A stretch of DNA of 64,000 nucleotides. Source: an uncultured delta proteobacterium (GTDB lineage Bacteria; Desulfobacterota; Binatia; Binatales; Binataceae). The stretch spans positions 1,225,565-1,289,564 of the forward strand of contig CAWJET010000001.1 of NCBI GenBank assembly GCA_963842085.1, given 5' to 3'. The notes under the pieces were generated by a model that ran no database searches, was not told the DNA's origin, and was given only the letters and a program-made list of their open reading frames with translations. The translations under genes and the position numbers were made by a program. Positions 5,376 to 64,000 of the stretch are shown piece by piece (within the stretch, counting starts at the first letter, position 1; every line of letters begins with the position of its first letter).

Positions 5376-5390
5376 CGTACCCGACTCGAA

Positions 5391-27389: not shown

Positions 27390-27392
27390 GCC

Positions 27393-41997: not shown

Positions 41998-42025
41998 ATC
42001 TAGAGAAGACGATCGGAGGGAAACA

Positions 42026-42205: not shown

Positions 42206-42219
42206 GGGGAAAGCACTCG

Positions 42220-43932
42220 ATGCTCATAAGAATCAATCGCTCACGCTATCGGCTCACCAGGCTTATCGTTCTGCTCTTGAGCGTTGCATGGCTTCTACCT
42301 ACGACGCTCGTTCTGGCGCAAGCACCAGCCGCGTCGCCGTCGGCAGCCGCTTCGCCGGCTCCGCCGCCATCCGTGCCTCTCAGTACAGGCGACATCAGAT
42401 CGATCAGCGGCCCTTCCGCCGCAGATTTGGCGAAGGGAGATCCGAGCGGAACTCTTACGGGTACGGTGAATGATGTCCCGGTCAGCGATACGAAGGCCGG
42501 TCTCACAATCGCCAACGTAGTTAACCAGGTGGGGCAGAATCGCATAGCGGCCAACTTCATTTGGACGCTGGTGACCGGTTATCTGGTCATGTTCATGCAG
42601 GCTGGCTTCGCCGCGGTTGAAACCGGACTCTGCCGCGCGAAAAACGCGAACCACACCTTCATGATGAACTTCATGGTGTACGGCTGGGGACTGTTCGCGT
42701 ACTGGGTAATGGGATTCGCGCTGCAGCAGGGAGGATGCGCTCCTGTCAGCACCTTAGGTGGCCTCAGCCCTCTCAACTCGGAATTCACGTTCAACTTTAT
42801 AGGCGGCAAGCCCTGGGGACTCTTCGGCCAGAAGGGATTCTTCCTGTCCGGTTCGGGCTACGACGTGGGCATCATGGTGATGTTCCTGTTCCAAATGGTG
42901 TTCATGGACACCGCTGCGACGATAGTCACCGGCGCCGCCGCCGAGCGATGGAAGTTTGCCGCCTTCTCAATGTCGAGCGTGTTTCTCGCCGCCATTACTT
43001 ACCCGCTTTACGCGAACTGGGCATGGGGTGGTGGTTGGACGTCAGCGCTCGGGGCGAACTACGGGCTCGGACATGGATATTGCGATTTCGCCGGATCAGG
43101 TGTCGTGCATGCTGTGGGCGGGATTTCGGCCTTGGCTGTCTCGATGATCATCGGCCCGCGGATCGGCAAGTATCAGCGGAGTGGCAAGCCAAATCCGATG
43201 CCAGGGCACGATATGACCATGGTTCTGATCGGATGCTTCATCCTGGCGTTTGGATGGTTCGGGTTTAACCCAGGCAGCACTCTCGGTGCGTCAGCTAACG
43301 GCGATTTGCGGATAGGAACTATCGCGGTCAACACAATGCTCGCAGGATGCACGGGTTCTATCGCGTCGCTGCTCTACATGTGGATTCGCTACGGTAAGCC
43401 TGATGCATCGATGGCAGGCAACGGACTGCTGGCGGGGCTTGTCGCGATTACCGCCCCCAGTGGTTTCGTGAACACAGTGGGAGCAACGATTATCGGCTTC
43501 TTTGCCGGAATGCTCGTTTGCTTGAGCGTAGAATTCATCGAGCGCGTACTGAAGGTCGACGATCCAGTCGGTGCCATCTCAGTACATGGGACGTGCGGTC
43601 TCTGGGGTGTCATATCAGTAGGTTTGTTCGCAGATGGCACCAGCAATTACGGCGGCAGTTGGAACGGTGTCAATGGCAACGTGACTGGACTGTTCTATGG
43701 CGACCCGAGCCAGTTGGTCGCCCAGTTCATAGGGTGCGCGACCCTGATCGGGATCGTCTTTTCGCTCGCATATGTCCTCAACTGGTTCGTCGACCTCGTC
43801 GTCGGACAGAGGGTCGGAGCCCACAGCGAGCTTGAAGGTCTCGATCTGCCGGAGATGGGAGCGCTCGGTTATCCCGAGTTCCAGCTAGTTACATCAGGCC
43901 TTGGCCGTTCAATCGACGTGGCAGCCGACTAG
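42220..43932 (+). CDS. amt: Ammonium transporter (Amt family) with signal peptide and N-terminal extension
   Basis: Amt core (..AGFAAVETG.. / ..NLVDLVVGQRVG..). Start at MLIRINRS.. with RBS GAGGGG. Immediately followed by glnK. Confidence 0.85.
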   Translation: MLIRINRSRYRLTRLIVLLLSVAWLLPTTLVLAQAPAASPSAAASPAPPPSVPLSTGDIRSISGPSAADLAKGDPSGTLTGTVNDVPVSDTKAGLTIANVVNQVGQNRIAANFIWTLVTGYLVMFMQAGFAAVETGLCRAKNANHTFMMNFMVYGWGLFAYWVMGFALQQGGCAPVSTLGGLSPLNSEFTFNFIGGKPWGLFGQKGFFLSGSGYDVGIMVMFLFQMVFMDTAATIVTGAAAERWKFAAFSMSSVFLAAITYPLYANWAWGGGWTSALGANYGLGHGYCDFAGSGVVHAVGGISALAVSMIIGPRIGKYQRSGKPNPMPGHDMTMVLIGCFILAFGWFGFNPGSTLGASANGDLRIGTIAVNTMLAGCTGSIASLLYMWIRYGKPDASMAGNGLLAGLVAITAPSGFVNTVGATIIGFFAGMLVCLSVEFIERVLKVDDPVGAISVHGTCGLWGVISVGLFADGTSNYGGSWNGVNGNVTGLFYGDPSQLVAQFIGCATLIGIVFSLAYVLNWFVDLVVGQRVGAHSELEGLDLPEMGALGYPEFQLVTSGLGRSIDVAAD

Positions 43933-43948
43933 GTCAAAAGGAGAACTT

Positions 43949-44041
43949 ATGGCAGCTCAAATTGCATTCGCGGTGATCATGCTCGCGGTATTCGTAGGAT
44001 GGATGTTTATCAAACCCGGCAAGAGCATCTTCGATAAGTAG
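43949..44041 (+). CDS. Small hydrophobic peptide (30 aa)
   Basis: MAAQIAFAVIMLAVFVGWMFIKPGKSIFDK. Strong RBS AAAGGAGAA, 17 bp after the amt stop. Confidence 0.35.
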   Translation: MAAQIAFAVIMLAVFVGWMFIKPGKSIFDK

Positions 44042-44050
44042 AAAACTCCG

Positions 44051-44548
44051 GTGGAATTGAATACGACAGCTATGCAGGAAGAGCTAACAGATCCGATGGC
44101 TGGAAAGCGCCCGACGCCCATAGTTCGCGACGCTCACGCGTTGCTGCTGCGAGGGATTGACGCCTTGGAGCGCAATCATATCGAAGAGGCTATCGCCCTG
44201 CTGCGCCAGGCGGTCCAACTCGATGCCGAGTCTTTCCACAGCCAGCTCGCGCTCGGCATCGCGCTCACCAAGGGTCTCGAGATTCCAGCTGCCGAAGCCG
44301 CCCTGGAGGCGGCGATAAGTCTCGAACCTCGAAGCTTCTGGGCCCACTTTCGAATGGGCGAACTGTTCCAGCGCGTCGGGGTTCCAGGAAAAGCAAAAGA
44401 GGAATTCCAGACTGCGCTGGACCTGGCGCAGACCAGCGAGGAAAAGAAGATCGCCCGAGACCGCCTGGAAAGTGAACAGAAACGCGACCCAGTACGCGCG
44501 TGGCGGCCAGACTTCGCCGGCTTGTTGCGTAGAAAGAAGCGGAAGTGA
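44051..44548 (+). CDS. TPR-repeat protein
   Basis: 165 aa, TPR-like helices. Confidence 0.55.
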   Translation: MELNTTAMQEELTDPMAGKRPTPIVRDAHALLLRGIDALERNHIEEAIALLRQAVQLDAESFHSQLALGIALTKGLEIPAAEAALEAAISLEPRSFWAHFRMGELFQRVGVPGKAKEEFQTALDLAQTSEEKKIARDRLESEQKRDPVRAWRPDFAGLLRRKKRK

Positions 44549-45092
<544 letters not shown>

Positions 45093-45125
45093 GTCTCGGT
45101 TCGTCCATTTTGAGCCGGTCTGCCG

Positions 45126-46136
45126 ATGGTCTATGGCTTAGGAGTAACGCTAGTCGTCGTCTTGTTGGGCCCGGTGATGTTCGAGCCGATCGGACAGAAC
45201 ATCGAGATGTTCTTTCTAGTCGTCGGCGCCTTTGCTTCCGCTATCAGTGGGCAATGGGGACACGATCTGCTTCACGCAGCACTCACCGAACCGATCGCCT
45301 TGACGATCGCGGTTCTGGTCTTTGGCGTGGTCATGCGCGTGACGCGACCTTGGCTCGACCAGGGGGTGAAACGACTGGTGCAGGTCGTCGATCCGCGATG
45401 GATCTATTTCGCTTTGATCATAGTTTTGGGACTGCTTTCGAGCGTCATCACTGCGGTAATCGCGGCCCTGGTCTTGGTCGAAGCGATTGCTTTGCTGAAG
45501 CTTGATCGCCGCAGCGAGATAGCAGCCGTCGTGCTGGCTTGCTTTGCGATCGGCTTGGGCGCCGCACTTACCCCGGTCGGCGAACCTCTCGGCACGATAG
45601 CGATCGCGGCGCTGAAGACGGACTTCTGGTACCTCGCGCGACTTTTGGGGCCAATGGTCGTTACCGGCATCGCGATCGTTGGAATTTTCAGTCTGTTCCT
45701 GCCGGCGAAGTACGGACACTCACTGAAAGCTGACGCCCACACGGAGAATTGGTCCGAGATTTTCTTTCGCGCAGGGAAAGTTTATCTGTTTGTCGCGGGA
45801 CTGGTTGGACTTTCGTGGGGACTGCGCCCGCTCGTCGACGCCTACATCAGCCACTTGCCGCAGGGTGTATTGTTTTGGCTGAACTCGATTTCAGCGGTCG
45901 TCGACAACGCCACGCTCACTGCCGCCGAGATTGGCCCCTCGCTGTCGACCGCGCAGCAGCGCGGTGTGCTGATGGGTCTCTTGATCAGCGGTGGCATGCT
46001 TATTCCTGGCAACATTCCCAACATCGTAGCAGCCGGGCGTTTGGGAATTTCGAGCCGCGAATGGGCTCGTGTTGGATTGGTAGCCGGGGTTCCACTAATG
46101 GCGCTCTGCTTCGCCGCTCTCTATTTGATGGCATGA
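45126..46136 (+). CDS. DUF1646-like polytopic membrane protein (putative cation/solute transporter)
   Basis: 336 aa, ~10 TM helices. Confidence 0.6.
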   Translation: MVYGLGVTLVVVLLGPVMFEPIGQNIEMFFLVVGAFASAISGQWGHDLLHAALTEPIALTIAVLVFGVVMRVTRPWLDQGVKRLVQVVDPRWIYFALIIVLGLLSSVITAVIAALVLVEAIALLKLDRRSEIAAVVLACFAIGLGAALTPVGEPLGTIAIAALKTDFWYLARLLGPMVVTGIAIVGIFSLFLPAKYGHSLKADAHTENWSEIFFRAGKVYLFVAGLVGLSWGLRPLVDAYISHLPQGVLFWLNSISAVVDNATLTAAEIGPSLSTAQQRGVLMGLLISGGMLIPGNIPNIVAAGRLGISSREWARVGLVAGVPLMALCFAALYLMA

Positions 46137-47215
46137 GTCAAAGGCAACATCTTCACGATCCTAGAATATCCAGGCGGAGAATTTATCTCCGGGGCCTCGT
46201 CGGACCTCATGAAAGCGACGAGGGGGAGACTGCGATTGAAACCCTGATGCCATCCCAGACCCGCCCGACGACAACTGGTGCGAAAGACGACGAGCTTCTC
46301 CTTGAGAGCCACAGCCTCCCAATGACTGAGTTTATCGAGGCAGGGCATCGAGCCGCCTTCGCCAACGCAACCGTTCTACTGACCGGCGACAGCGGCACCG
46401 GGAAAAGCGCCTTCGCGCGCCAGATACATAGATGGAGTCGGCGAAGCGAGGCGCCATTTTTAAGCGTCGACTGTGCAGCGATATCCGAGCACATTCGCGA
46501 GAGCGATCCCTTCGAGGATTTAAGGAACTCGCTGGCGGCTTTGCCCGCTGAACGCGACGGCGAAAGCGACGTTTCGGACTCCGCTACCCTGCTTTTGGAC
46601 AATCTCGTGGATCTCCCGCATGCCGCTCAGGCCAGGCTTTTGCAGTTCGTCGAAGGGCGGCAATCTAGCCCGCATCTGCCCTCTTCGCGGTTGAGAGTAA
46701 GGATCGTTGCTGCTTCTAGTCGCGATCTTTCCGAAGAGGTTTCGGCCGGTCGTTTCCGCCGCGATCTCTTCTATCGGATCAACGTGATCGCGCTGAGGAT
46801 TCCCGCGCTGGCCGATCGCCGCGGAGATATTCTTCCATTAGCCGAGCACTTATTGGCGAACTTCGCACTGCAAAACCATCGGTTTGGATTGCACCTATCA
46901 GCCGAAGCTGAGGCCGCGATCGCGAGCTATCAGTGGCCTGGCAATGTCCGGGAATTGAGAAACGCCATCGAGCGCGCGGCCGTCCTATGCACCCGGGATT
47001 TGATCGGCGAACAACTTCTCCCACATGCGGTCTTGTCCGCCAAACGACTTTACTCCTTTCCGGAACCCAAACCAGTCAGTAGTCTCGAAGAGGTCGAGCG
47101 CCGGCAGATCATAGAAGTGCTCAAAGAATCCGCGACCATGGAAGAGGCTGCGGCCGCACTCGGCATCAACTCCACGACACTCTGGCGAAAGCGAAAACTT
47201 TACAATATCCACTAG
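46133..47215 (+). CDS. bEBP-like AAA+ transcriptional regulator (sigma-54 interaction domain with degenerate GAFTGA, Fis-type HTH, no receiver/sensor domain)
   Basis: Walker A GDSGTGKS, ..RFRRDLFYRINV.., ..WPGNVRELRNAIERA.., C-terminal HTH. GAFTGA region replaced by ..ESDPFEDLRNSLAALPAERDG... Start overlaps the DUF1646 stop (ATGA). Confidence 0.65.
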   Translation: MSQRQHLHDPRISRRRIYLRGLVGPHESDEGETAIETLMPSQTRPTTTGAKDDELLLESHSLPMTEFIEAGHRAAFANATVLLTGDSGTGKSAFARQIHRWSRRSEAPFLSVDCAAISEHIRESDPFEDLRNSLAALPAERDGESDVSDSATLLLDNLVDLPHAAQARLLQFVEGRQSSPHLPSSRLRVRIVAASSRDLSEEVSAGRFRRDLFYRINVIALRIPALADRRGDILPLAEHLLANFALQNHRFGLHLSAEAEAAIASYQWPGNVRELRNAIERAAVLCTRDLIGEQLLPHAVLSAKRLYSFPEPKPVSSLEEVERRQIIEVLKESATMEEAAAALGINSTTLWRKRKLYNIH

Positions 47216-50830: not shown

Positions 50831-51365
50831 GTTGGAATCCTCCCTGTAGAGATTAAAGATTTTCTTACCGCTGAACAACGGATATTGCAATAAGGAACGG
50901 GCCAGCGACGGAGGGATCCATTGCCGACCCGAGCACCGGTTGCCGTAAGTGTGGCGGCGAGCCTATTGTGCGTTCGTGGGGATAGTGGTGGGGAGTATCT
51001 TCCCGCCCAGCGCCAGCGTGGATTCTCCCCTCCATGCTAGCGCACTTCGTCGCATGATTCCTCATCCCATCTGATTTCGGCTTCGCTCCTGTTTATCCCA
51101 GCAAATGAAGCCACCCTCAAATCAAAAGACGCCAGTCAATGGCTGTCGCGCTGAGATGACGCCAGTACCGGCGTAGGGTCGGGACCTGATCGCCGAGAAG
51201 GTTGACGGCGCTGGCCGACACGTTCGCCAGATCGCAGTGTGCGGGCGCATTGCGAGATCGTCATCCAGCGCGAGCGGGGTAGCGGGCTTGAGATCTCATA
51301 TCGGCGGAATGAATGAGCGCCTGTGCTTCGTCAAAACGTCATCCGCGTGACGAAGCTCGGCGAGT

Positions 51366-52400
51366 GTGATAGTCGAACGCGCAATGTTTGGTTTGCTGAC
51401 TCGGGTTTTGCGCACGCTGCTGTCGGTGCTTGCTGCTCGCGGCTCGCGTGAGGCCGAGATCCTCGTCCTGCGCCAGCAGCTATTGGTTCTGAGCCGCAAG
51501 GCGCCAAAGCGCGCCCGACTGCGAAACATCGATCGCCTGATTCTCGTCTGGCTGTCTCGGCTCTTCCCGTCGGTGTTGGATGCCATAGTCATCGTCAAGC
51601 CTGAGACTGTGCTGGGCTGGCATCGACGCGGGTTCCGCGCCTACTGGCGCTGGAAGTCCTGGCGGCGTGGCGGACGGCCCCGGATCGATCGCGAGCTCCG
51701 CGAGTTGATCCTCCGTATGAGCAGAGAAAATCCGCTCTGGGGCGCGCCCCGGATCCATGGCGAACTGCTGATGCTCGGGATCGACGTCAGCGAATCAACC
51801 GTTGGACGATACATGGTCAGGACGCGGCGACCGCGCTCGCAGGGTTGGAAGACCTTCCTGCGCAACCAGGCCGCCGGGATCGCCTCCATCGATCTATTCG
51901 TAGTCAGAACCATCTCGTTCAAGCTGCTCTACGGACTAGTGATCCTCCACCACGCCCGAAGGCGGCTGGCGAGGATCGCCGTGACCACTAATCCGACCGC
52001 AGAATGGATCGCAGGCCAGGTGACCGAAGCCTTTCCCTGGAGCGAAGCGCCGCGTCATCTGATCCGTGACCGCGACCGTGCGTTCGGATCGGCGTACACC
52101 CGGCGGGTTCATGCGATGGGTATCCGCGATCATCCAACTGCGGCACGCTCGCCCTGGCAGAACGGACACGTCGAGCGGCTCATTGGCTCGGTTCGGCGCG
52201 AATGCCTCGACCACGTCTTGGTGTTCGGCGAAGCGGATCTGCGTCGCGTCCTCAAAACCTACGCCGGCTACTACAACAAGGTCCGAACCCACTTGTCGTT
52301 AGACAAAGACGCGCCCCACTGCCGACGCACACAGACCGTCGGTGCCATCGTCGCAGTGCCGGTTCTCAAGGGACTCCATCATCAATACGTTCGAGTTTGA
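51366..52400 (+). CDS. DDE transposase/integrase-core protein (rve; IS481/IS3-like)
   Basis: 344 aa. ..IVKPETVLGWHRRGFRAYW.. N-domain. rve core with ..SPWQNGHVERLIGSVRRE.. Confidence 0.75.
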   Translation: MIVERAMFGLLTRVLRTLLSVLAARGSREAEILVLRQQLLVLSRKAPKRARLRNIDRLILVWLSRLFPSVLDAIVIVKPETVLGWHRRGFRAYWRWKSWRRGGRPRIDRELRELILRMSRENPLWGAPRIHGELLMLGIDVSESTVGRYMVRTRRPRSQGWKTFLRNQAAGIASIDLFVVRTISFKLLYGLVILHHARRRLARIAVTTNPTAEWIAGQVTEAFPWSEAPRHLIRDRDRAFGSAYTRRVHAMGIRDHPTAARSPWQNGHVERLIGSVRRECLDHVLVFGEADLRRVLKTYAGYYNKVRTHLSLDKDAPHCRRTQTVGAIVAVPVLKGLHHQYVRV

Positions 52401-52655
52401 ATTTTGATTATGGACAGGCCACCGAGACACATGATCACGTAGAGCATGATCATCGCCCCGAGCGTGCTCTTGCCAGATTTTTTGGGCGCCGAAAAGATCA
52501 GTTCGGAATACAGCAGCCGGCCATCCGCGGTCAGCCTCAGCGCTTTCGACAGGAAACGTCGTTGCGCGCGGTTTAGTTCGAACGGCTGGTTGGTCTCAGG
52601 GTTGCGCAGAACTTAGCCAATGAACGCGATCGGATCGTGGCGCCAGCGCGCGATG

Positions 52656-53099
52656 TCATTCGGGCTTATCGCCACTGACGACCTCCTCGTCCTTCCCGGC
52701 CTGCACTATGGCAAGCGCGAGATCGAACTGCGCGCGCGTTCCCGACGCCCGGATCGCCATCCTCGATGCCGGTGTCAGGCCCAGTTCACGTTCGTAAGCG
52801 AGTTGCGCTTGGCGGAGCTGTCGCAATTCGGTGAGAAGGCGCCGTGGTTCGCCTTCAGAGTTCGTCACCCCGTTGACGACCAGTTCGGCAAATATGCTCG
52901 CACCAAGAATTTCAAACTCAGCCCACGCACGCGCGGCCGGAATGTCGCTCGGTTCGAGCCATGGCAGCACGCGTCGCATCTTCTCGACCAGCCGTCGCAC
53001 GCGTCGATGGCGAAGTCTGAGACCGCTAGCCGCTTTCAAATACAGTCCGGTTCGCGCGCGTCGTACGCCCGAAGCCAGTCTTTCGTCTTGAGCATCCAT
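52656..53099 (-). CDS. Phage terminase small subunit (P27 family), probable prophage remnant
   Basis: 147 aa. ..ERELGLTPASRMAIRA.. motif typical of the P27-family small terminase. Confidence 0.5.
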   Translation of the reverse strand: MDAQDERLASGVRRARTGLYLKAASGLRLRHRRVRRLVEKMRRVLPWLEPSDIPAARAWAEFEILGASIFAELVVNGVTNSEGEPRRLLTELRQLRQAQLAYERELGLTPASRMAIRASGTRAQFDLALAIVQAGKDEEVVSGDKPE

Positions 53100-53176
53100 A
53101 GGAACCTCTACTCTTCAACTTAGGGGAAAATTTCCCTGATGCTCTTCGTGAGACAAATCGTGCGACACGCTAAAAT

Positions 53177-54034
53177 ATGAAACGTATGCGACCGATTCAG
53201 ATCTGGCTTCCGACTCTTGGGCCGAGTCCGAATCTGAGCGAAGTGGCTCGCGACCGCGACCGCGCGTTCCGGGCTTGGGAAGGCGAGTCGAGCGTTTGGC
53301 TGATGCCCGACCTAAACAGGCAGACCCGCTGGGACAAGGACGGAATCCGAGACTTGGCCATCCCTGCCGAGCGTTTCGATCACTTGGAAGTGTTTCATGT
53401 CAGTGAAAAAGGCCAAGTCTCTGGGCCCTCGGTTAACGACTATTTCCCGGGAGGGCGGCTAGATGGCTTGCTCCAGGCCTGGCTTAACGTGTGGAAGCTC
53501 GGCGGCGTCGCCCTCCATCCCGTGCCAAATCACTTCGAAATGGAAGTTCCGGAGATCACTTCCAATGGCGTTCGATATCGCAAGAGGAAGATCACTTTAG
53601 AGGGCGCACCCTCATTCCCCCTCCACCCTCCAGAACCCAATTCGGAAACCTCGGAGCTTCGATGGCCTCCAAGAGGTTGCCCGCCTACGGTTTCTCCGGA
53701 CGCTGAAATCATGACTCGCCGGTCGCATACCGGCACCCACGCCGATGACAAACGCTTGACTCTAGAGTCCGGTGGCATGCTGATGCAATTTCTCCTTAAC
53801 TGGCCCAAACCCCTCGATAACTTCCTGCCGATCTTGAGCGGTTTGGACGACCTGTCCTGCCAAGCCATCATGTCGGACATTGCACGAGATAGCCGGCGCG
53901 AACAGGAGAGATCGATCATCAAAGTCCGGGAGCTCTGCTTGCCGACGAGAATTGGCGGAAGGAACTGGCGCGCCCAGTTTCACGGGTATTTGACCGGCAA
54001 GGCCAGGCGCAATCGGTTGGACTCGTTTGGCTGA
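53177..54034 (+). CDS. Hypothetical protein
   Basis: 285 aa ORF, no recognisable motif. Confidence 0.4.
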   Translation: MKRMRPIQIWLPTLGPSPNLSEVARDRDRAFRAWEGESSVWLMPDLNRQTRWDKDGIRDLAIPAERFDHLEVFHVSEKGQVSGPSVNDYFPGGRLDGLLQAWLNVWKLGGVALHPVPNHFEMEVPEITSNGVRYRKRKITLEGAPSFPLHPPEPNSETSELRWPPRGCPPTVSPDAEIMTRRSHTGTHADDKRLTLESGGMLMQFLLNWPKPLDNFLPILSGLDDLSCQAIMSDIARDSRREQERSIIKVRELCLPTRIGGRNWRAQFHGYLTGKARRNRLDSFG

Positions 54035-54244
54035 TGGCAGTCTTGGTGGCAGTTGTGGTCGGAGAACCTGAAATTAGGAACTAGAAGCGATACCCTGTCG
54101 GTACCGAAAACCGGTCTTCTCTTTTAACCAGCCAAACTCGCCGGCAAACTTTAGGTTGTTCGCGCGGTCTCGCCGCTGCCCGAAGTGAATGATGTTCCGC
54201 CTCTTGGCAATCGATGTTGTGACGGCGCGAGCCCGCCGCAACGC

Positions 54245-54277
54245 ATTCTTACAAGCCGGGGGCGCAGGTTCGAAACC
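54245..54277 (+). other. tRNA-like 3' fragment (T-arm + acceptor), possible att remnant
   Basis: GCAGGTTCGAAACCCTGCACCACCCA. No 5' acceptor partner (GGGTGGT) upstream. T-loop has an unusual 8 nt. Confidence 0.25.
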
Positions 54278-54471
54278 CTGCACCACCCACAGTAGAGTCA
54301 GGCGCTTACGAGATTCGGCTCGCTCCCCTCAGTCGTCTGGTGCTGGTTGGAAATGCGCGACTATCCCCAAAAACATCACAGCTACGGTTCGCGGTTTCGC
54401 CCGAATCTACCCTGCTCAAAATGAAGGCTTGCCGAGAACCGTTCATTTTGGAAACCGCCCACACACGGTAC

Positions 54472-54598
54472 CTAGCAGGTTGCGGAAAAAGGGTTTTTGA
54501 CTCCTGATGACATTGATCCAAGACGCATTCTCGTGATCGTAGTAATGCTTACTCTTCGCCGAAATCGTCTTTCATTGAGTTTTTCCGCAACCTGCTAG
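54472..54598. mobile_element. 127-bp MITE, copy 1, with 19-bp TIRs CTAGCAGGTTGCGGAAAAA (IS5-derived)
   Basis: Identical to copy 2 at 62920..63046. TIRs differ at one position from those of the IS5-family element at 37910..39192. CTAG borders. Confidence 0.75.
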
Positions 54599-54616
54599 CA
54601 CCTGCTGAACGAGGCG

Positions 54617-55951
54617 TCATTCAATATGGTATCGCTTTCTCTTGCGCCAGAGCGTTGGGATGCTTATGCCGAGGGTGGCGGCGGCATCTTCGAGCGTCGG
54701 AGCAACCGCCAGCACTCGCTTGATGTGTTCTTCCTCCAGCTCCTCGAGGCTTGAATCGGCTGATAGCTGGATCGGGCGCTGAGTGCTCGGCACAAAGAGC
54801 ACGTCCGAGAGATCTTCCTTGCGTATGACCGTGCCCCGGCTCAGAACGACCGCACGTTCCACCACGTTGCGAAGCTCTCTGATGTTCCCCGGCCACGGAT
54901 ATGGAATCAGGGCCTTCCTGGCCTCATCTGAGAACCGGAGATCAGGGCGGCGATTTCGCGCAGCCGCCTCGGACAACAGCTTCTCGGCCAGTGGCAGAAT
55001 ATCCTCAGGGTGCTCGCGTAGTGCGGGTACTCGGAGGCTGATCACGTTGAGCCGGTAATACAAGTCTGCTCGGAACCGGCTGGCTGCGATCTCCTGTTGC
55101 AGGTCGCGATTAGTGGCAGCGATGACGCGCGCGTCGACCGAAATGGTCTCTTGCCCACCAATCCTTTCGAAGCATCCGTCCTGCAGGAAACGAAGAAATT
55201 TCGTCTGAAGAGATAGCGACAGCTCCGCGATCTCGTCAAGAAACAGCGTGCCCTGATTCGCCGCTTCGAGCCGGCCCGGTTTGTCCTTAATCGCGCCCGT
55301 AAAGGACCCCTTCATATGGCCGAACAGTTCGCTTTCCAGCAGATGCTCTGAAAGGGTGGTGCAATTCACCGTTACGAAAGGATGCTCGTGTCGCGGGCTC
55401 CACTCATGTATCTGGCGCGCGAGCACATTCTTGCCGGTACCGCTCTCGCCGGTGAGCAGAATACTCGCCTCGCTGCCGGCCGCCGTGAACGCGACTTCGA
55501 TCAGCTCGCGAAACCGAGTGTCGGCGGAGGCCAGCAACGGAACGCCGTCGATCGAGTCGCGCAGTGCACGATTTTGAGAGCGCAAATTCTGGACCTCGAG
55601 AGCGCGCTCAACCGCGTGCTGAACCTGATCAAGGGAAAACGGCTTGATGAAATAATCATATGCACCCGCCTTCATGGCCGCGACTGCGTTGTCGATCGTG
55701 CCGTAAGCGGTCATGAGAATCACAATTGTTCCGGGAAACTTCGCCTTGATGCTTTTGAGCAGCTCCAAACCATTCATCTCGGCCATCCGCCAATCGCTCA
55801 AGACCAGGTCGAAGTCCCCGCACTTCGACATAACATCCAGCGCCTGGCGCCCGCTGTCCGCGGTGGCAACCTGGTAATTGCAAGACTCGAGGAACTTGGC
55901 GAGTGTCTGCCGAATGTTCCTTTCGTCATCTACGATCAGCAGTTTAGGCAT
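54617..55951 (-). CDS. Sigma-54-dependent response regulator (NtrC family: REC + AAA+ + Fis HTH)
   Basis: 444 aa. ..LVLSDWRMAEMNG.. receiver. GESGTGKN Walker A. ESELFGHMKGSFTGA. ..WPGNIRELRNVVERA.. Confidence 0.9.
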   Translation of the reverse strand: MPKLLIVDDERNIRQTLAKFLESCNYQVATADSGRQALDVMSKCGDFDLVLSDWRMAEMNGLELLKSIKAKFPGTIVILMTAYGTIDNAVAAMKAGAYDYFIKPFSLDQVQHAVERALEVQNLRSQNRALRDSIDGVPLLASADTRFRELIEVAFTAAGSEASILLTGESGTGKNVLARQIHEWSPRHEHPFVTVNCTTLSEHLLESELFGHMKGSFTGAIKDKPGRLEAANQGTLFLDEIAELSLSLQTKFLRFLQDGCFERIGGQETISVDARVIAATNRDLQQEIAASRFRADLYYRLNVISLRVPALREHPEDILPLAEKLLSEAAARNRRPDLRFSDEARKALIPYPWPGNIRELRNVVERAVVLSRGTVIRKEDLSDVLFVPSTQRPIQLSADSSLEELEEEHIKRVLAVAPTLEDAAATLGISIPTLWRKRKRYHIE

Positions 55952-57021
55952 CAGGACTCCAGGGAAAGCGGCAGCGTCAACGCTACTCTGCCGCCGTCTT
56001 GAAACGTTTCCGCGAACAATCTGCCGCCGTGCGCCTCGACGATCTCCCTCGCGATCGCGAGGCTGACTCCGCCTTCGGGGTTGTCCAAGACTGCGCCGGC
56101 CTGAGGCGTATTCTCGAAGATCAGTTCTCGAACACGAGGCGGAATTCCCGGGCCGCTGTCCCAGACAGATACTCTGACCTGTCTGTCTTCCTGCTCCGCA
56201 GTCAAATCGATCCTTCCCATCTCAGGAGTATAGCGCAGCGCATTGCCGACAAGAGTAGCTATCACCCACGACAGCTTCAGCGGATCGCCTGTGACTGCCG
56301 GAATCTTTTCGGCGCGCACCGCGAATTGGATTTTCCGACGCTCAAACCGGCCTTCAAATTTTCTGCAAACGAAGTCGAACAGAGTCCTGAGTTCGAAATC
56401 CATATTCTCAAGCGCGATCGATCCTGGTCGCCCGCGCACAAAATTAAGAAAGTCAGCAGATGCATGGTTGAGCCGATCAACATCTTCGATGATCTCACGG
56501 ATCAGTTCGTTCTGCTCCTCTCTGCCGCGTTGCAGTAGTCCCGCTGCCAGAGACAGGGATGTCAGCGGAGTATTGAGCCGCTGGGCAACGGCCGCGACAG
56601 CGGTATCGTGAGCCCTGCTTCTTTCGCGACGTAGGGAAATATCATGAAGGACGACCAACGTACCAAGAGAATTGCCGCTCCCGTGGCGCAGCGGGGCAGC
56701 CTTCAGAAGATATTCATGATCGCGGCCTTGCACTGTCAGACTAACTTCCGCCTGCTGCTCGCCGGGTGGAAAGCTCCTGGCGCTTTCGAGCGCCGCTCGA
56801 ACGAGCGGGAAACTGGCGCAGTGATGTTCGATGTCGTGATTGAATTGATGACCGATGACTCGATCGCGATCGATGGCCAGGATCTCAGCAGCCGCCCGAT
56901 TCATGTGGACGACGGTCCCGGCCTGATCGAGGACGAACGCAGGTTCGTCAAGACTATCGACTATCGCCGCGGCCCGATCGTCTTCAGTGGAAGATCCTCG
57001 CCGTACCGTCTGCGCGGCCAT
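55951..57021 (-). CDS. PAS-domain sensor histidine kinase
   Basis: 356 aa. PAS (..FVLDQAGTVVHMNRAAAEIL..). HisKA. HATPase (..DSGPGIPP..GGVSLAIAREIVEAHGGRL..). Confidence 0.85.
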   Translation of the reverse strand: MAAQTVRRGSSTEDDRAAAIVDSLDEPAFVLDQAGTVVHMNRAAAEILAIDRDRVIGHQFNHDIEHHCASFPLVRAALESARSFPPGEQQAEVSLTVQGRDHEYLLKAAPLRHGSGNSLGTLVVLHDISLRRERSRAHDTAVAAVAQRLNTPLTSLSLAAGLLQRGREEQNELIREIIEDVDRLNHASADFLNFVRGRPGSIALENMDFELRTLFDFVCRKFEGRFERRKIQFAVRAEKIPAVTGDPLKLSWVIATLVGNALRYTPEMGRIDLTAEQEDRQVRVSVWDSGPGIPPRVRELIFENTPQAGAVLDNPEGGVSLAIAREIVEAHGGRLFAETFQDGGRVALTLPLSLES

Positions 57022-57030
57022 CCAAGTGAT

Positions 57031-57627
57031 CTACTTCGTCATGGCGGTCGGTTGATTGCCGGTGGTTGCGTCGAGCGCGAGATTGAGTTCCAGGACGTTC
57101 ACGCCGGGCTCGCCCAGAAACCCAGCCCATCGCGGCTGCGTGTTGGCGTTGACGAGGGCACGCACAGTATCCGCGCTGATGCCACGAACCTTGGCCACCC
57201 GTTCAATTTGAATCTCGGCGGCAGCGGGGCTGATCTGCGGGTCAAGGCCGCTGCCGGAGGCTGTTACCATATCCACCGGGACCTGCGACGCCGAAACACT
57301 ATCTTCCTCCACAACGGCCTTGGTCCGCTGCTTGACGGAATCGATAAAGCTCTTGTTGGTCGGGCCAAGGTTAGAACCGCCTGAGCTGGTCGGATCATAG
57401 CCGTTGTTTCCCGCGGCAGAAGGGCGGGGATGAAAGTAGCGAGCGGCTTTGAAGTTCTGGGCTATCAGCGCGGATCCTACGGGCGATCCGTTCCGATAGA
57501 TCAGGCTGCCGCCAGCCTGGTCGGGAAATAATACGTGACCGACCTCAAGCATCGCGATTGGATACACTATCCCAGTCAAAAGGGTCAGGACGACCGTCAT
57601 CTTGATAGCAACCATCAGAGAACGCAT
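57031..57627 (-). CDS. kdpC: K+-transporting ATPase subunit C
   Basis: 198 aa. ..LLTGIVYPIAM.. N-terminal TM, ..VPVDMVTASGSGLDPQISPAAA.., ..GEPGVNVLELNLALD. Confidence 0.9.
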   Translation of the reverse strand: MRSLMVAIKMTVVLTLLTGIVYPIAMLEVGHVLFPDQAGGSLIYRNGSPVGSALIAQNFKAARYFHPRPSAAGNNGYDPTSSGGSNLGPTNKSFIDSVKQRTKAVVEEDSVSASQVPVDMVTASGSGLDPQISPAAAEIQIERVAKVRGISADTVRALVNANTQPRWAGFLGEPGVNVLELNLALDATTGNQPTAMTK

Positions 57628-57639
57628 TCGAATTCTCCT

Positions 57640-59688
57640 CTAAGCCAAATGAATCGTGGTGATCAGCAGGTCAATCGCCTTGATGCCAATGAAAGGCGCG
57701 ATGATGCCGCCAAGCCCATAGATGAGCAGATTGCGAGCGAGTATTCCGGCCGCTCCGACTGGACGATACTGCACGCCGCGTAGAGCGAGCGGGATCAAGG
57801 CGATGATGATCAAGGCGTTGAAGATGACCGCTGACAGAATCGCGCTCTCGGGCGTCGCGAGATGCATGATGTTGAGCGCCTGCAGCTCAGGATAAGCCAG
57901 CAGGAACATCGCGGGAATAATCGCGAAGTACTTCGCGACGTCATTTGCCACTGAAAAGGTAGTCAGCGCGCCGCGCGTAATCAGCAACTGCTTTCCAATC
58001 TCGACCACTTCCATGATCTTGGTCGGGTTGGAATCAAGATCGACCATGTTTCCGGCTTCGCGCGCTGCCTGAGTGCCAGCGTTCATTGCGATTCCCACGT
58101 CCGCCTGCGCCAAGGCCGGCGCGTCGTTGGTGCCATCGCCGATCATCGCCACCAGCTTGCCTTGGGCCTGCTCGTCGCGAATCAGGCGCAGTTTAGTCTC
58201 AGGAGTGGCCTCAGCTCGAAAATCATCGACGCCAGCTTCAAAAGCAATGGCGGATGCGGTCAGGGGATTGTCGCCGGTTATCATCACGGTGCGTAGTCCC
58301 ATGGCCCGCAGTCTCGCGAAGCGTTCCTTGATACCTTCCTTTATGACGTCCTTGAGGTGGATAACTCCGAGAATGTGATTGTTCTCCGCGACCACGAGCG
58401 GGGTGCCACCGCTCTTTGAGATTCGTTCCACTATCCCGTCGAGTTCCTGTGGAATGCTGCCACCCGCATCGCGAGCAAACTTAATCACGCGATCCGAAGC
58501 ACCTTTACGGATTTTGCGTCCTGGCATGTCGACGCCGCTCATCCGCGTCTGCGCCGAAAATGCAATGAACTCGGTATCCTTTTCCTCCAGTTCGCGTCCG
58601 CGGATGTTGAATTCCCGCTTGGCGAGAACCACGATCGATCGTCCTTCGGGGGTTTCATCCGCGAGCGACGCAAGCTGGGCAGCATCGGCCAACTGTTCGA
58701 CCCGCACGTCGAGTACGGGGATGAACTCAACCGCCATTCGGTTGCCGAGCGTGATGGTCCCGGTCTTGTCGAGTAGAAGCGTATCGACGTCCCCTGCTGC
58801 TTCCACCGCGCGTCCGGACATTGCCAGCACGTTGTGCTGCACCAAGCGGTCCATTCCGGCGATACCTATCGCGGATAATAGTCCCCCGATTGTCGTCGGG
58901 ATAAGGCAGACCAGCAGGGCAACCAGCACGGGTAACGTTAACGATGCGTTGCCGTAAAGACCGAATGGGTAGAGGCTCACGCAGACCAGCATGAACACGA
59001 GGGTCAGACCCGACAGTAATATGCTCAGGGCGATCTCATTCGGCGTTTTCTGGCGTGCCGCGCCTTCAACCAGGGCAATCATTCGATCAAGGAAGGTCTC
59101 GCCTGGATTGGCGGTGATCCGCACCTTGATCCAGTCGGAAATAACAGTAGTGCCGCCAGTTACGGCGCTGCGATCGCCGCCGCTCTCGCGAATCACTGGC
59201 GCCGACTCGCCGGTAATAGCAGCCTCGTTGACCGCCGCCATCCCTTCGATCACCTCGCCATCACCAGGGATCGATTCACCAGCGCGTACTATGACTACAT
59301 CGCCACGGCGTAGTGAAGTCGCCTGTACAGTTTCCTCCTTGCCATCGCGCAGCACCGCAGCGTGCATTTCGATCCGAGTCTTACGCAGGTTGTCGGCTTG
59401 CGCCTTCCCGCGTCCTTCAGCCATTGCCTCGGCGAAGTTGGCAAAGAGGACCGTGAACCACAGCCATATCGCAATCTGTAGCTCGAATCCGATAAGTCCG
59501 GCCTTACCTGTAAACAAATCGCGGAAGATGATTATCGTCACCGCCACTGCGGTAACTTCCACCACAAACATCACCGGGTTACGGGCCTGGATGCGCGGAT
59601 CGAGCTTGCCGAGCGATTCGAACGCAGCGCGTTTCACAATCTCCGGCTGCCACAGGGGCGTTACCTTACGTTCAGTCGTATTAGCCAC
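57640..59688 (-). CDS. kdpB: K+-transporting P-type ATPase subunit B
   Basis: 682 aa. DKTGTIT phosphorylation motif. [18 protein letters not shown]. Confidence 0.95.
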
Positions 59689-59703
59689 TTTCGTTCAGCC
59701 TCG

Positions 59704-61431
59704 TTAGTAAAGTTTTCCGCTCATCATCGCCAGATGTTCAACAATCGGACCCAGCGACCAACTGGCGAAAAAGGTTAGAGCGCCGACGATGAGCACTACC
59801 GCGGCGAGGAGGATTACAAACAGACCACCGTTAGTCGGGAAGGTGCCTGCGCTCACCGGTACGGCCTTCTTCTCGACCACAGAACCAGCGATCGCCAGCA
59901 CCGGGATCATGGTGCCGAAGCGCCCAAACAACATCACCGTTCCTAGGATGACGTTGTAAAACATGGTGTTAGCGTTCAACCCAGCAAACGCCGAACCGTT
60001 GTTAGCAGCGGCTGACGAGAACGCGTAAAGAATCTCGCTAAAGCCGTGCGGTCCCGCATTAGCTATTGAAGAAAGCGCACCCTTATTAACTACAGCAGCT
60101 GCCGTTGGAAGCAGTATCACTGCCGCGAAGATCAGGATGTACAGCATCGCCAATTTCATCTCGCGTGCCTGTATCTTCTTGCCCAGGTACTCCGGCGTGC
60201 GCCCTACCATCAGCCCCGCGATGAACACCGTCAGGATCGCCATTACGATCATTCCCGCGAGTCCGGTACCTACACCGCCGAACACCACTTCGCCGAGGTG
60301 CAGATTGAAGATCGGAACCAGGCCGCCTATTGGAGTGAAGCTGTCGTGCATCGAATTGACGGACCCATTGGACGCGTCGGTAGTAGCAGTGGCCCACATC
60401 GCGGAGTTGACGATCCCGAAGCGCACCTCCTTGCCTTCCATGTTGCCGCCGCTCTGCTGAGCAGATGCGGTTTGGTTGATTCCGATGGAAGCGAACTGCG
60501 GGTTGCCGCGCTGTTCAGCCCGCGTGCATACAACTACGGCGCCCAGAAAGAGCAGACCCATCGTTGCGTAGAGTGCCCATCCTTGGCGTTTGTCCCCGAC
60601 CATCTTGCCAAACGTATGGGGCAACGCGGCGCCAAGGATAAAGATCGCAAACAGCTCAAGAAAATTAGTAAGCGGTGTTGGATTCTCGAACGGATGAGCT
60701 GAGTTGGCGTTGAAGAAGCCGCCGCCATTGGTGCCCAGCTGCTTGATCGCAATCTGCGATGCTACCGGACCTTGGGCGATACTCTGTGCGGCTCCTTCGA
60801 CTGTCTTTACGCTAGTGTAGGCGCTGAAGTTATCGGGCACGCCCTGCCATATCAGAACCAGAGTGAAAACTATGCAGATCGGAATCAGGATCCACAGCGT
60901 CGCGCGGACCAGGTCGTACCAGAAGTTTCCAATGGTACGGATGCCGTGTCGAGCAAAACCCCGGATGACGGCGATCGCGATCGCCAAACCCGCTGCCGCC
61001 GATACGAAGTTGTGGAACGCGAGGCCCGCCATCTGAGTCAGATAACTCATGGTGGATTCGCCTGAGTAAGCCTGCCAGTTGGTATTGGTCGTGAAGCTTG
61101 CCGCGGTATTGAATGCGAGCCCGGGTTCGACCCCGGCAAATCCCTGCGGATTCAGCGGCAGGAAATACTGCAAGCGTTCCAGCGCGTATAAGACTATCAT
61201 CCCGACGAAACTGAACAGCAGCACCGAGATCGTATATTCGACCCAGGTCTGCTCCGTTGCCGGCTTGACCCCGCACAGCCGATAAATCAGACGCTCGACT
61301 GGCGTAAGGACCGGATCCAGAAACGTGCGCTCGCCTGCAAAAACGCGCGCCATGTAAAGCCCGAGCGGCACGCTAATGATGGTGAGAACCACCGAGTAGA
61401 AACCGATTTGAATTAAAGCGTTACTAAACAC
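59704..61431 (-). CDS. kdpA: K+-transporting ATPase subunit A
   Basis: 575 aa polytopic KdpA with selectivity-filter-like ..NGGGF.. segments. Confidence 0.95.
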   Translation of the reverse strand: MFSNALIQIGFYSVVLTIISVPLGLYMARVFAGERTFLDPVLTPVERLIYRLCGVKPATEQTWVEYTISVLLFSFVGMIVLYALERLQYFLPLNPQGFAGVEPGLAFNTAASFTTNTNWQAYSGESTMSYLTQMAGLAFHNFVSAAAGLAIAIAVIRGFARHGIRTIGNFWYDLVRATLWILIPICIVFTLVLIWQGVPDNFSAYTSVKTVEGAAQSIAQGPVASQIAIKQLGTNGGGFFNANSAHPFENPTPLTNFLELFAIFILGAALPHTFGKMVGDKRQGWALYATMGLLFLGAVVVCTRAEQRGNPQFASIGINQTASAQQSGGNMEGKEVRFGIVNSAMWATATTDASNGSVNSMHDSFTPIGGLVPIFNLHLGEVVFGGVGTGLAGMIVMAILTVFIAGLMVGRTPEYLGKKIQAREMKLAMLYILIFAAVILLPTAAAVVNKGALSSIANAGPHGFSEILYAFSSAAANNGSAFAGLNANTMFYNVILGTVMLFGRFGTMIPVLAIAGSVVEKKAVPVSAGTFPTNGGLFVILLAAVVLIVGALTFFASWSLGPIVEHLAMMSGKLY

Positions 61432-61447
61432 TTTTGTCTTCTCGCCT

Positions 61448-61540
61448 TTAGAATTTTTCCGGCCGCAACAACGCGTAGACCAAGTACACAGTCAGGCCGA
61501 CAGCCATTATCGAACCCATTGCTATTTCCCAAGGCGTCAT
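61448..61540 (-). CDS. kdpF: K+-transporting ATPase subunit F
   Basis: 30 aa: MTPWEIAMGSIMAVGLTVYLVYALLRPEKF (YLVYALL.PE.F KdpF signature), directly upstream of kdpA. Confidence 0.7.
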   Translation of the reverse strand: MTPWEIAMGSIMAVGLTVYLVYALLRPEKF

Positions 61541-61620
61541 AGTTTTTCGCACCCCCATACGTATGCGACCGCAACTAGAAAGAACGCCACCGTTCCGATG
61601 AGGAAAATTGTATCGAGCAT
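61537..61620 (-). CDS. Small hydrophobic ORF overlapping the kdpF start (ATGA)
   Basis: MLDTIFLIGTVAFFLVAVAYVWGCEKL. No clear RBS. Lies between the predicted sigma-54 promoter and kdpF. Confidence 0.2.
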   Translation of the reverse strand: MLDTIFLIGTVAFFLVAVAYVWGCEKL

Positions 61621-61644
61621 AGTTAGTCTCGAGAGGAAGGCAGC

Positions 61645-61660
61645 AGCATAAAGCGTGCCT
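61645..61660 (-). promoter_or_regulatory. Candidate sigma-54 promoter of the kdp operon
   Basis: Minus-strand AGGCACGCTTTATGCT fits TGGCACG-N4-TTGCW with correct GG-N10-GC spacing, ~25 bp upstream of the small ORF. Confidence 0.45.
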
Positions 61661-61811
61661 CCGGATCTTCCATGCGAATGTGGATTTTTTCGTCAGTCGC
61701 CAACGGGCAGGGATTTCAAAATGATATGTGACACTGCGAATCGAAACAGGGAGCCAGCGTCGAAGAGCCGCATTAGCAGTTTCCGGGATGGAGCGATCGG
61801 ATACAAAAAGC

Positions 61812-61842
61812 TTGCGGGATCCGCATAGTCGCGACCCCGCAA
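61812..61842. promoter_or_regulatory. Inverted repeat TTGCGGG-N17-CCCGCAA (with inner TGCGG-GAT-CCGCA), candidate enhancer/UAS for the NtrC-family regulator
   Basis: Located ~170 bp upstream of the -24/-12 element. Confidence 0.25.
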
Positions 61843-61875
61843 ACTTTTACTTAAAGAGAGAGAAAACCGGACTGC

Positions 61876-62919: not shown

Positions 62920-63046
62920 CTAGCAGGTTGCGGAAAAAGGGTTTTTGACTCCTGATGACATTGATCCAAGACGCATTCTCGTGATCGTAGTAATGCTTAC
63001 TCTTCGCCGAAATCGTCTTTCATTGAGTTTTTCCGCAACCTGCTAG
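62920..63046. mobile_element. 127-bp MITE, copy 2 (identical to 54472..54598)
   Basis: Lies between the kdpB' stop and the kdpC' start. Its terminal CTAG overlaps the kdpB' stop codon. Confidence 0.75.
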
Positions 63047-64000
63047 GCCACCACGTGCAAGGTGGTGAGCATTACGTCGATGAGCTTTATGCCGATGAAC
63101 GGTAGAATGACGCCGCCGACTCCCCAGACCATCAGATTTTTGCGCAACAAAGCATCGGCGCCGAGTGGCTGATACTTGACACCTTTCAGCGCCACTGGGA
63201 TCAGGATTGGAATGATGACGGCGTTGAAGATGACCGCCGACAAGATCGCGGACGTGGTCGAATGAAGATTCATGATATCCATGGCCTTCAGCCACGGCAG
63301 TGTTCCGGCAAATAGCGCCGGAATGATCGCGAAGTACTTGGCGACGTCGTTGGCGACCGAAAATGTCGTGAGCGCGCCGCGGGTCATCAGGAGCTGCTTG
63401 CCGATCTCGACGACCTCGATCAGCTTGGTGGGATCGGAATCGAGGTCCACCATGTTGCCGGCTTCCTTAGCAGCCTGCGTTCCGGAGTTCATCGCCAGCC
63501 CAACGTCGGCCTGGGCCAGCGCCGGAGCGTCGTTGGTGCCATCACCGACCATCGCCACGAGTTTGCCTTCGCCCTGCTCCTTGCGGATGTAAGCCAGCTT
63601 CGATTCGGGAGTGCATTGCGCGACGAAATCATCGACGCCGGCGTGCTTCGCAATCGTCGCAGCAGTGAGCGGATTATCGCCGGTGATCATCACGCTGCGT
63701 ACGCCCATCGCGCGCAGACGTTGCAGACGCTCGCTGATGCCGGTCTTGAGAACGTCGGACAGCACAATGACCCCAACAATGTTTGCGCCCTCGGCAACCA
63801 CGAGCGGCGTCGCTCCCTGCGAGCCTATAGCATCGACGACGGAATCAAGATCCGACGGAATCGAACCTGACTGGTGCTCGACAAATTTGGCCACCGCGTC
63901 CGGCGCTCCTTTGCGGATCGGTTTGCCGTCGGGAAGATCGACACCACTCATGCGTGTCTGCGCGGAAAAAGCGACAAAGCTCGTGCCATTGGGCGCCGTG
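63043..64000 (-). CDS. kdpB: K+-transporting ATPase subunit B paralog, C-terminal part (gene continues beyond window)
   Basis: ~75% identical to the C-terminus of kdpB at 57640..59688 (..[14 protein letters not shown].. [18 protein letters not shown]..). Confidence 0.9.

Follow-up and report, generated by a model that had tools for sequence, protein, structure and literature searches.

The 64,000-nucleotide stretch of DNA analysed here, referred to below as the window, belongs to an uncultured delta proteobacterium of the family Binataceae and carries on its minus strand a kdp operon for a potassium pump, joined to the genes of a histidine-kinase-like protein and of an NtrC-type transcriptional activator. 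The gene order is a small open reading frame (ORF) of 27 residues, kdpF, kdpA, kdpB, kdpC, the PAS/HisKA/HATPase protein, and the REC-AAA+-HTH sigma-54 activator (Table 1). The gene of the 356-residue kinase-like protein starts 9 nucleotides past kdpC and overlaps the activator gene by 1 nucleotide. The Pfam assignments thus agree with a preliminary description of the locus, which had placed the gene of a PAS histidine kinase within 10 bp behind kdpC and, overlapping with it, an NtrC-type activator with a GSFTGA loop. The same description had reported that kdpD and kdpE are missing from the locus, and this holds within the window: a tblastn search with a KdpD-N protein detected no KdpD N-terminal domain in it (best E value 0.27), Pfam found neither PF02702 nor Usp in the 356-residue protein, and there is no OmpR-type regulator among the window ORFs scanned. 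The KdpB protein is 96% identical to those of the related loci L081, L084, and L088. As a whole, the locus is best explained, with moderate confidence, as a single sigma-54-dependent transcription unit that extends from the promoter ahead of the small ORF through the gene of the NtrC-type regulator.

Table 1. Features of the kdp locus; positions refer to the window.
Feature	Position	Strand	Evidence or remarks
NtrC-family activator, 444 aa	54617-55951	-	Pfam Response_reg 2e-29, Sigma54_activat 9e-67, HTH_8 6e-08, AAA_lid_14
PAS-DHp-CA protein, 356 aa, cytoplasmic	55951-57021	-	Pfam PAS, HisKA, HATPase_c
kdpC	57031-57627	-	Pfam KdpC 5e-74
kdpB, P-type ATPase subunit	57640-59688	-	Pfam E1-E2_ATPase and Hydrolase
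kdpA	59704-61431	-	Pfam KdpA 1e-244
kdpF, 30 aa, MTPWEIAMGS...LLRPEKF	61448-61540	-	Pfam Potass_KdpF 2e-10, TIGR02115 7e-11
Conserved hydrophobic small ORF, 27 aa, MLDTIFLIGTVAFFLVAVAYVWGCEKL, first gene of the operon	61537-61620	-	Conservation in related loci
Candidate sigma-54 promoter AGGCACGCTTTATGCT	61645-61660	-	-24 GG at 61659-61658, -12 GC at 61647-61646
Promoter-proximal, partly conserved block CGAAAAAATCCACATTCGCATGGAAGATCC, with an A-tract and the second ATTCGCA	61663-61692	-	Alignment
Best candidate enhancer (upstream activating sequence), 33 bp, TTTCGATTCGCAGTGTCACATATCATTTTGAAA	61714-61746	-	Conservation in 8 loci
Intrinsic terminator of kdpC2 (palindrome and T-run)	61803-61848	-	Folding, covariation, distribution
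kdpC2, 337-aa KdpC with an insertion of ~137 aa	61876-62889	-	Pfam and NCBIfam KdpC in two stretches, residues 5-100 and 238-330
kdpB2, 3' part, runs off the window end	63043-64000	-	Pfam Hydrolase

The comparison is based on 34 aligned homologues of the kinase-like protein and on a set of 80 genomic loci, most of them from metagenome-assembled genomes (MAGs) of Candidatus Binatota and the others from Acidobacteriota, Planctomycetota, Desulfobacterota, Methylomirabilota, Gemmatimonadota, and Clostridia. The preliminary description had raised the question of how widespread the association of kdp genes, kinase-like gene, and activator gene is; kdpABC, a kinase-type gene, and an NtrC-type activator stand together in most of the 80 loci, and dozens of loci, belonging to several phyla, show them in this order. 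The kinase-type protein occurs in a short form, to which the window protein belongs, and a long form. In the loci with the long form, kdpC is followed by a 385-residue ORF that matches Pfam KdpD and Usp as well as the NCBIfam model NF038185 ("KdpD-like non-kinase potassium sensor"), then by a HAMP-PAS kinase of ~595 residues, and then by the activator. The gene of the KdpD-like sensor is present in nearly all long-kinase loci, and is absent from the window and from loci L001-L006.

The locus can be compared with two known Kdp systems. Like KdpD/KdpE of Escherichia coli, the window encodes a two-component-type pair beside kdpFABC that is presumed to control these genes. However, the window pair lacks the KdpD N-terminal, Usp, and membrane domains, its regulator is an NtrC-type AAA+ protein and not of the OmpR type, and the promoter is of the sigma-54 and not of the sigma-70 type. 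With genes DVU3334-DVU3339 of Desulfovibrio vulgaris Hildenborough, the window shares kdpFABC followed by a PAS kinase-type gene and a terminal NtrC-family regulator, a layout that is also found in most of the Binatota loci fetched. The D. vulgaris operon consists of kdpFABC, DVU3336 (KdpD sensor domain and Usp), DVU3335 (sensory-box kinase), and DVU3334, a sigma-54 regulator that binds upstream of its own kdp operon (PMC3333781). The operon is listed under potassium uptake in the sigma-54 regulome of this bacterium (PMC4641369). The sigma-54 control of kdp, which the preliminary description had regarded as little characterised, has thus been mapped experimentally in D. vulgaris, and an NCBIfam model (NF038185) exists for the sensor that normally accompanies it. 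In contrast to DVU3334-DVU3339, the window lacks the gene of a KdpD-N/Usp sensor that would separate kdpC from the kinase-type gene. The kinase-like protein of the window is a short one, without the membrane or HAMP part and without the phospho-acceptor histidine, the 27-residue ORF stands ahead of kdpF, and a second kdp operon is found directly upstream. The window is therefore a reduced derivative of a known sigma-54 Kdp system, which lacks the K+ sensor gene, the membrane and HAMP part of the kinase, and the phospho-acceptor histidine. What is new is the natural, conserved, histidine-less kinase derivative combined with the loss of the KdpD sensor, a combination of which we found no description in the literature searched.

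The candidate sigma-54 promoter of the operon, AGGCACGCTTTATGCT, matches 10 of 12 consensus positions and is located 24 nucleotides upstream of the first ATG, that of the small ORF. It is well supported because the element is conserved across related loci, no sigma-70-like site is present in the 255-nucleotide spacer 61621-61875, and an Rfam scan of the whole window identified no riboswitch and no leader. When the loci closest to the window are aligned, eight orthologous promoters share an invariant GGCA..CTTTATGCTG and a nearly invariant 16-mer, while the flanks have diverged. GG-N10-GC elements that match at least 10 of the 12 positions were found in 15 of 56 regions upstream of kdpA (450 nucleotides each), compared with about 1.6% expected from the background rate in the same loci. 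In the Binatus group (L017-L022, L026, L029, L033, L036), sites matching 11 of the 12 positions, TGGCACGCGCGGTGCT, are positioned ~620 nucleotides upstream of kdpA. These loci have an extra cysteine-containing ORF of roughly 100 residues (...YHCARCKWSF...) between the promoter and the small ORF.

The preliminary description had recognised this promoter as a TGGCACG-N4-TTGC element. The element is present as AGGCACGCTTTATGCT and is conserved in the orthologous loci, but within the window the match by itself carries no significance. If two mismatches are allowed, TGGCACG-N4-TTGCW is found there 9 times, with 11 occurrences expected, and is thus not enriched; because the count is uninformative, the support was taken from the comparison across loci. 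Two further observations count, together with this one, against a sigma-54 promoter: the -24 element begins with AGG and not TGG, and the window contains no ORF with an RpoN box. A cognate activator with a GAFTGA-type loop is encoded in the same operon, in the variant GSFTGA, which is also listed for DVU3220 (PMC4641369). Taken together, the comparisons make it highly probable that kdp is wired to sigma-54 through an NtrC-type regulator and that its expression in vivo would depend on sigma-54.

The best candidate for the enhancer is a conserved 33-bp block centred ~71 bp upstream of the GG of the -24 element. In eight loci, TTTCGATT-GCA and TATCA-TTTGAAA are invariant within the block and the flanks vary. 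The block is unique in the window, with zero occurrences expected, and is homologous to a TGCATYG-N7-CGATGCA...TTTTGAAAT block that occupies the same distance from the promoter in the long-kinase loci. The long-kinase block is a clear palindrome, whereas the dyad symmetry in the window is weak and limited to the outer TTTC...GAAA, so the site is defined there by conservation alone. Between the candidate enhancer and the promoter is a partly conserved block, which holds the second of two ATTCGCA repeats spaced 62 bp apart. Short-kinase and long-kinase loci encode activators with different recognition helices (LGISIPTLW as against LGINVTTLW), which fits the divergence of the upstream site. It is likely, from the conservation of the block, that the activator binds to it.

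The preliminary description had instead assigned the role of enhancer to the inverted repeat TTGCGGG-N17-CCCGCAA at positions 61812-61842. The repeat is real and unique in the window (0.02 expected by chance), but it is the terminator of a second kdp operon. This operon, overlooked in the preliminary description, is located directly upstream on the same strand, 255 nucleotides away, and its end accounts for the palindrome. The palindrome starts 34 nucleotides past the stop codon of kdpC2 and extends to a stem of 16 bp. The folding energy of an 86-nucleotide segment with the hairpin is -28 kcal/mol (z -3.2), and GCTTTTTGT comes next behind the hairpin. Six related loci have a hairpin at the same position, with four compensatory base pairs, a variable loop, and a T-rich tail. 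In a set of 91 loci, the exact palindrome pattern was found only just downstream of kdpC2-type genes. Locus L089, which has the same promoter and upstream block and no upstream kdp operon, lacks the hairpin, and L003 has a different hairpin behind its kdpC2. On the grounds of position, folding, covariation, and distribution, including the absence from L089, we reject the palindrome as an enhancer. The correction matters for binding experiments, because the fragment proposed for them earlier, 61800-61850, is the terminator.

The two operons suggest another origin of the transcript, namely that transcription is mainly read-through from the upstream kdp2 operon, or starts at an unrecognised sigma-70 promoter, and that the GG-N10-GC match is fortuitous. 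Their position on the same strand 255 nucleotides apart and the lack of enrichment of the sigma-54 pattern by itself are compatible with this. However, a strong hairpin with a T-run separates the operons, the spacer contains no sigma-70-like site, and the sigma-54 element is also kept in L089 and L034, which have no upstream operon; we regard read-through as very improbable.

The second operon is of the long-KdpC type. The tandem layout of the window, kdpA2B2C2 followed by the small ORF, kdpFABC, the short form, and the activator, is repeated in L081-L084, L086, and L088. Two operons of the long-KdpC type are found in L001 and L085, and a single one in L089 and L090. The complete kdpA2-kdpB2 upstream part is seen in L086 (5695-11014), and KdpA of the second operon is only ~36% identical to that of the first. 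The second operon has its own small ORF of 31 residues, MNLWIWLPATFVLGLAGLGLCYLFLIGCENI, and its own kdpF. In L086, the region upstream of kdpA2 (4562-5923) contains no GG-N10-GC promoter; the best match there reaches 6 of 12 positions, and AAGCACCGAAGTTGCT has AG for GG. The same region contains two perfect TTTCA-N3-TGAAA palindromes (5311-5323 and 5466-5478), which resemble the TATCATTTTGAAA part of the candidate enhancer block of the window. The metagenome contig of L086 ends right behind its activator gene.

The activator has the complete set of domains of an NtrC-type protein, with a Fis-type HTH at the C-terminus. Its receiver domain retains DD8/9, D53, T81, and K103 in all short-form loci, and its AAA+ domain carries GESGTGK and GSFTGA. 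The ratio of nonsynonymous to synonymous substitution rates (dN/dS) of the gene is 0.06-0.10. Given these conserved residues, the activator probably still makes use of phosphorylation. The kdp operon is very probably sigma-54-dependent and under the control of this co-encoded activator, as judged from the conserved promoter element, the lack of a sigma-70-like site in the spacer, and the recurrent gene order.

The 356-residue protein is derived from a histidine kinase and lacks the phospho-acceptor histidine. Its H-box, AQRLNTPL, aligns with SHELRTPL of solved kinases, and in phmmer alignments Gln147 takes the position of the histidine of VicK, ThkA, and 8u4x. The claim of the preliminary description that a PAS histidine kinase simply replaces KdpD is therefore not borne out. 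Our alignments comprised 62 short forms of about 353 residues and 50 long forms of 585-605 residues. All 50 long forms have histidine at the phospho-acceptor position, and the short forms have Gln (34), Asn (20), His (4), Glu (2), Ser (1), or Asp (1). A regular-expression count among the top 120 homologues gave the same picture, with the histidine absent from 63 of 67 short forms and present in 50 of 50 long ones. The other catalytic positions are kept in all 50 long forms and to different degrees in the 62 short ones. The +4 Thr (Thr151 in the window) and the first Gly of the G1 box (Gly290) are present in all short forms, the Asn of the N-box (Asn260) in 61, the second Gly of the G1 box (Gly292) in 60, the +1 Glu (Arg in the window) in 38, and the second Gly of the G2 box in 13. 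Within the CA domain of the window protein, Asn260 and D288-x-G-x-G are kept, the G2 box reads GVSL as opposed to GLGL, and the FER of the F-box is changed. His138, which was considered as an alternative phospho-acceptor in the DHp helix, is not conserved, and the helix contains no other conserved histidine. The protein is thus presumably incapable of canonical autophosphorylation.

The window protein corresponds to only a part of the long form, about residues 247-594. Its AlphaFold2 model has a predicted local distance difference test score of 72; the PAS and CA domains are confident, and the DHp domain is of low confidence in this monomer model. Foldseek searches matched generic PAS kinases (WalK, VicK, ThkA, YF1) and also DivL, RetS, and NifL-NifA, and nothing among the matches was decisive. 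The long forms share two membrane helices, HAMP, PAS, HisKA, and HATPase domains, and the partnership with an NtrC-family regulator with the KinB-AlgB pairs, and many homologues are named KinB in JGI (KEGG "NtrC family sensor histidine kinase KinB"). However, the resemblance to KinB-AlgB extends no further than architecture and name; the targets are different ones, and the window protein is truncated and histidine-less.

The gene of the kinase-like protein is under purifying selection. Its dN/dS compared with orthologues is 0.21-0.32, which exceeds the values of the activator, of KdpB (0.04), and of KdpC (0.12-0.17) and is far smaller than 1. A decaying pseudogene is ruled out by this ratio and by the ORF being intact in more than 60 lineages. 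In a neighbour-joining tree computed without bootstrap, the short forms constitute two clades, one with the replacement of His by Gln or Glu and four His-keeping members at its base, the other with the replacement of His by Asn, Ser, or Asp. The two clades point to at least two independent losses of the histidine, to Gln/Glu and to Asn/Ser/Asp.

The pattern of retained and lost residues resembles that of kinases whose two activities have been separated by mutation. Kinase-dead, phosphatase-competent HisKA mutants are also represented by EnvZ H243 and NtrB H139N variants. In CrdS, the partner of an NtrC-like regulator, the acidic residue at position +1 is required for kinase activity only and the Thr or Asn at position +4 for phosphatase activity only (PMC3510030). 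CrdS H371A retains most of the phosphatase activity (PMC3510030; Willett and Kirby), and in both H371A and E372A, which lost the histidine or the +1 acid, the kinase activity is gone and the phosphatase activity, dependent on the +4 Thr/Asn, stays (PMC3510030). The natural pattern of the short forms, with the histidine lost, position +1 relaxed, and the +4 Thr invariant, mirrors such a kinase-dead, phosphatase-competent protein. The CrdS-type proteins are laboratory mutants of bifunctional kinases, whereas the window protein belongs to a natural conserved family known from sequence. The histidine-less protein is most likely a phosphatase or modulator of the activator and not its kinase, an assignment whose chances we put slightly below even.

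The residues also bear on the model of the preliminary description, according to which a working PAS histidine kinase responds to a signal inside the cell, autophosphorylates, and phosphorylates the activator, which in turn binds TTGCGGG-N17-CCCGCAA. In favour of it, a PAS-HisKA-HATPase protein beside a receiver-containing activator corresponds to the classical arrangement of two-component systems, both the N-box and the G1 box are preserved, and four short homologues retain the histidine. However, Gln147 replaces the phospho-acceptor and the DHp helix offers no conserved substitute for it, Arg stands in place of the +1 Glu, the G2 box has degenerated, and the palindrome has the properties of a kdpC2 terminator and is missing from L089 despite the same promoter. 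This model is improbable.

The histidine-kinase fold is also reused without histidine phosphorylation to control a partner in DivL, which has Tyr at the position of the histidine, in RetS, and in NifL, which acts on NifA. NifL controls a sigma-54 activator. By this example, the window protein could be a stoichiometric anti-activator that binds the activator and, depending on its bound nucleotide and on the state of its PAS domain, blocks or releases it without any phosphoryl chemistry. The loss of kinase residues together with the retention of the nucleotide-binding N and G1 boxes is in line with this mechanism, as are the overlapping genes, which favour equimolar synthesis, and the Foldseek matches to the NifL-NifA complex and to the pseudokinases DivL and RetS. 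It is nevertheless unlikely, since the activator has a receiver with all the residues that phosphorylation requires, the phosphatase-specific Thr151 does not vary, and NifA has a GAF domain and no receiver. Furthermore, there is no specific sequence relationship between DivL, RetS, or NifL and the window protein.

It is also conceivable that a master kdp system with a KdpD-N sensor, a long kinase, and an activator exists elsewhere in the genome and that the locus is its satellite, so that K+ sensing would still be KdpD-based. In this reading, which is compatible with the phosphatase or modulator role, the long kinase would phosphorylate the window activator as well, or heterodimerize with the short protein. 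A short-form and a long-form locus (L001 and L026) come from the same MAG. In L090, the one context examined in which the short form (P0036) retains the histidine, a 599-residue HAMP-PAS kinase (13256-15055) is encoded two genes downstream of the activator, an arrangement that hints at how short and long forms may work together. The DHp helices and receiver surfaces are similar between the short and long types. However, five of six short-form MAGs have no long form among the matches listed, and the recognition helices and upstream blocks differ between the two types of activator. This reading is unlikely.

Between promoter and kdpF, the small ORF encodes a peptide whose stop codon overlaps the ATG of kdpF, and the small ORF is translationally coupled to kdpF. 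It is conserved in related loci, with changes at third codon positions. The C-terminus of the peptide is ...GCEKL, and ORFs of the same type end with [GA]C[EDG]x[LIF]. Of 67 kdp operons, at least 38 have a small ORF of this type ahead of kdpF; these operons are from Binatota, Planctomycetota, Acidobacteriota, and Desulfobacterota, and none of them is from Clostridia. Neither Pfam nor NCBIfam has a family to which the window peptide could be assigned. It could be a small subunit of Kdp that is as yet undescribed, or a regulator of the pump.

The window also contains a dense set of mobile-element genes, at positions 11290-12816, 25221-30125, 30983-36736, and 51351-52400. They include an IS110-family transposase, a type IV coupling protein (TrwB/TraG), a TrwC relaxase-helicase, a tyrosine integrase, two large serine recombinases, and an rve_3 integrase. 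The kdp locus seems to lie at the edge of a mosaic of such integrative or conjugative elements. Between the insertion sequence integrase and the activator gene, a stretch of 2 kb (52400-54600) contains only ORFs without Pfam matches, for example 53177-54034. Elsewhere in the window, a segment on the plus strand (41672-47215) encodes an ammonium transporter (42193-43932), a P-II protein (44754-45092), and a DUF1646 protein (45126-46136). A candidate sigma-54 promoter, CGGCATGGCCGTTGCT (41672-41687), is positioned upstream of this ammonium transporter and P-II cluster. The segment ends with an activator-like protein (~46300-47215, plus strand) that has Sigma54_activat and HTH_8 domains and lacks a receiver and the GAFTGA loop.

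The observations can be combined into a mechanism for the locus. The ancestral wiring would be that of D. vulgaris, common in Binatota and other soil phyla, in which KdpD is split in two, into a stand-alone KdpD-N/Usp K+ sensor and a membrane-bound HAMP-PAS histidine kinase. In the window, the regulator produced from the same transcript would bind the conserved block ~70 bp upstream of the -24 element and, using ATP, open the complex of sigma-54 RNA polymerase with the promoter. Since the gene of the regulator is part of the transcript, the operon would activate its own regulator. The phosphoryl group would be supplied by another kinase or by acetyl phosphate, and the histidine-less protein would act on the intact receiver of the regulator as a PAS-gated phosphatase or as a binding modulator, providing a built-in negative control. 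Several observations weigh against this mechanism. The window protein and its closest relatives lack the +1 Glu and have a degenerate G2 box, and the protein could be catalytically inert and act by binding only. The neighbour-joining tree that separates the two losses of histidine is without bootstrap support, the candidate enhancer of the window has little dyad symmetry, and only one of the six short-form MAGs also has a long kinase among the matches listed. On balance, a sigma-54 promoter activated from the upstream block by the co-transcribed regulator, with the histidine-less protein as phosphatase or modulator, has in our estimate slightly better than an even chance of being correct.

The regulation of Kdp is a textbook case built almost entirely on KdpD/KdpE. 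The locus described here belongs to a second, sigma-54-based solution, which has its experimental anchor only in Desulfovibrio and is, among the loci fetched, common in Binatota, Acidobacteriota, Planctomycetota, and Desulfobacterota. The variant in the window has dropped both the recognised K+ sensor and the histidine of the kinase, yet it is under purifying selection, and it thus constitutes a natural experiment. It raises the questions of how a two-component pair works when its kinase half is dead, and which signal controls a K+ pump that is without KdpD. A more far-reaching reading, which we regard as less likely than not, is that a widespread family of histidine-less HisKA/HATPase proteins of soil bacteria, comprising at least 58 sequences in two clades with independent loss of the histidine, has replaced the split KdpD sensor-kinase in Kdp operons under sigma-54 control, and that its members are dedicated PAS-gated phosphatases of the NtrC-type activator or modulators that sense its phosphorylation state. 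If this is true, control of the K+ pump would require no KdpD module and would be exerted by removing the phosphoryl group, not by adding it.

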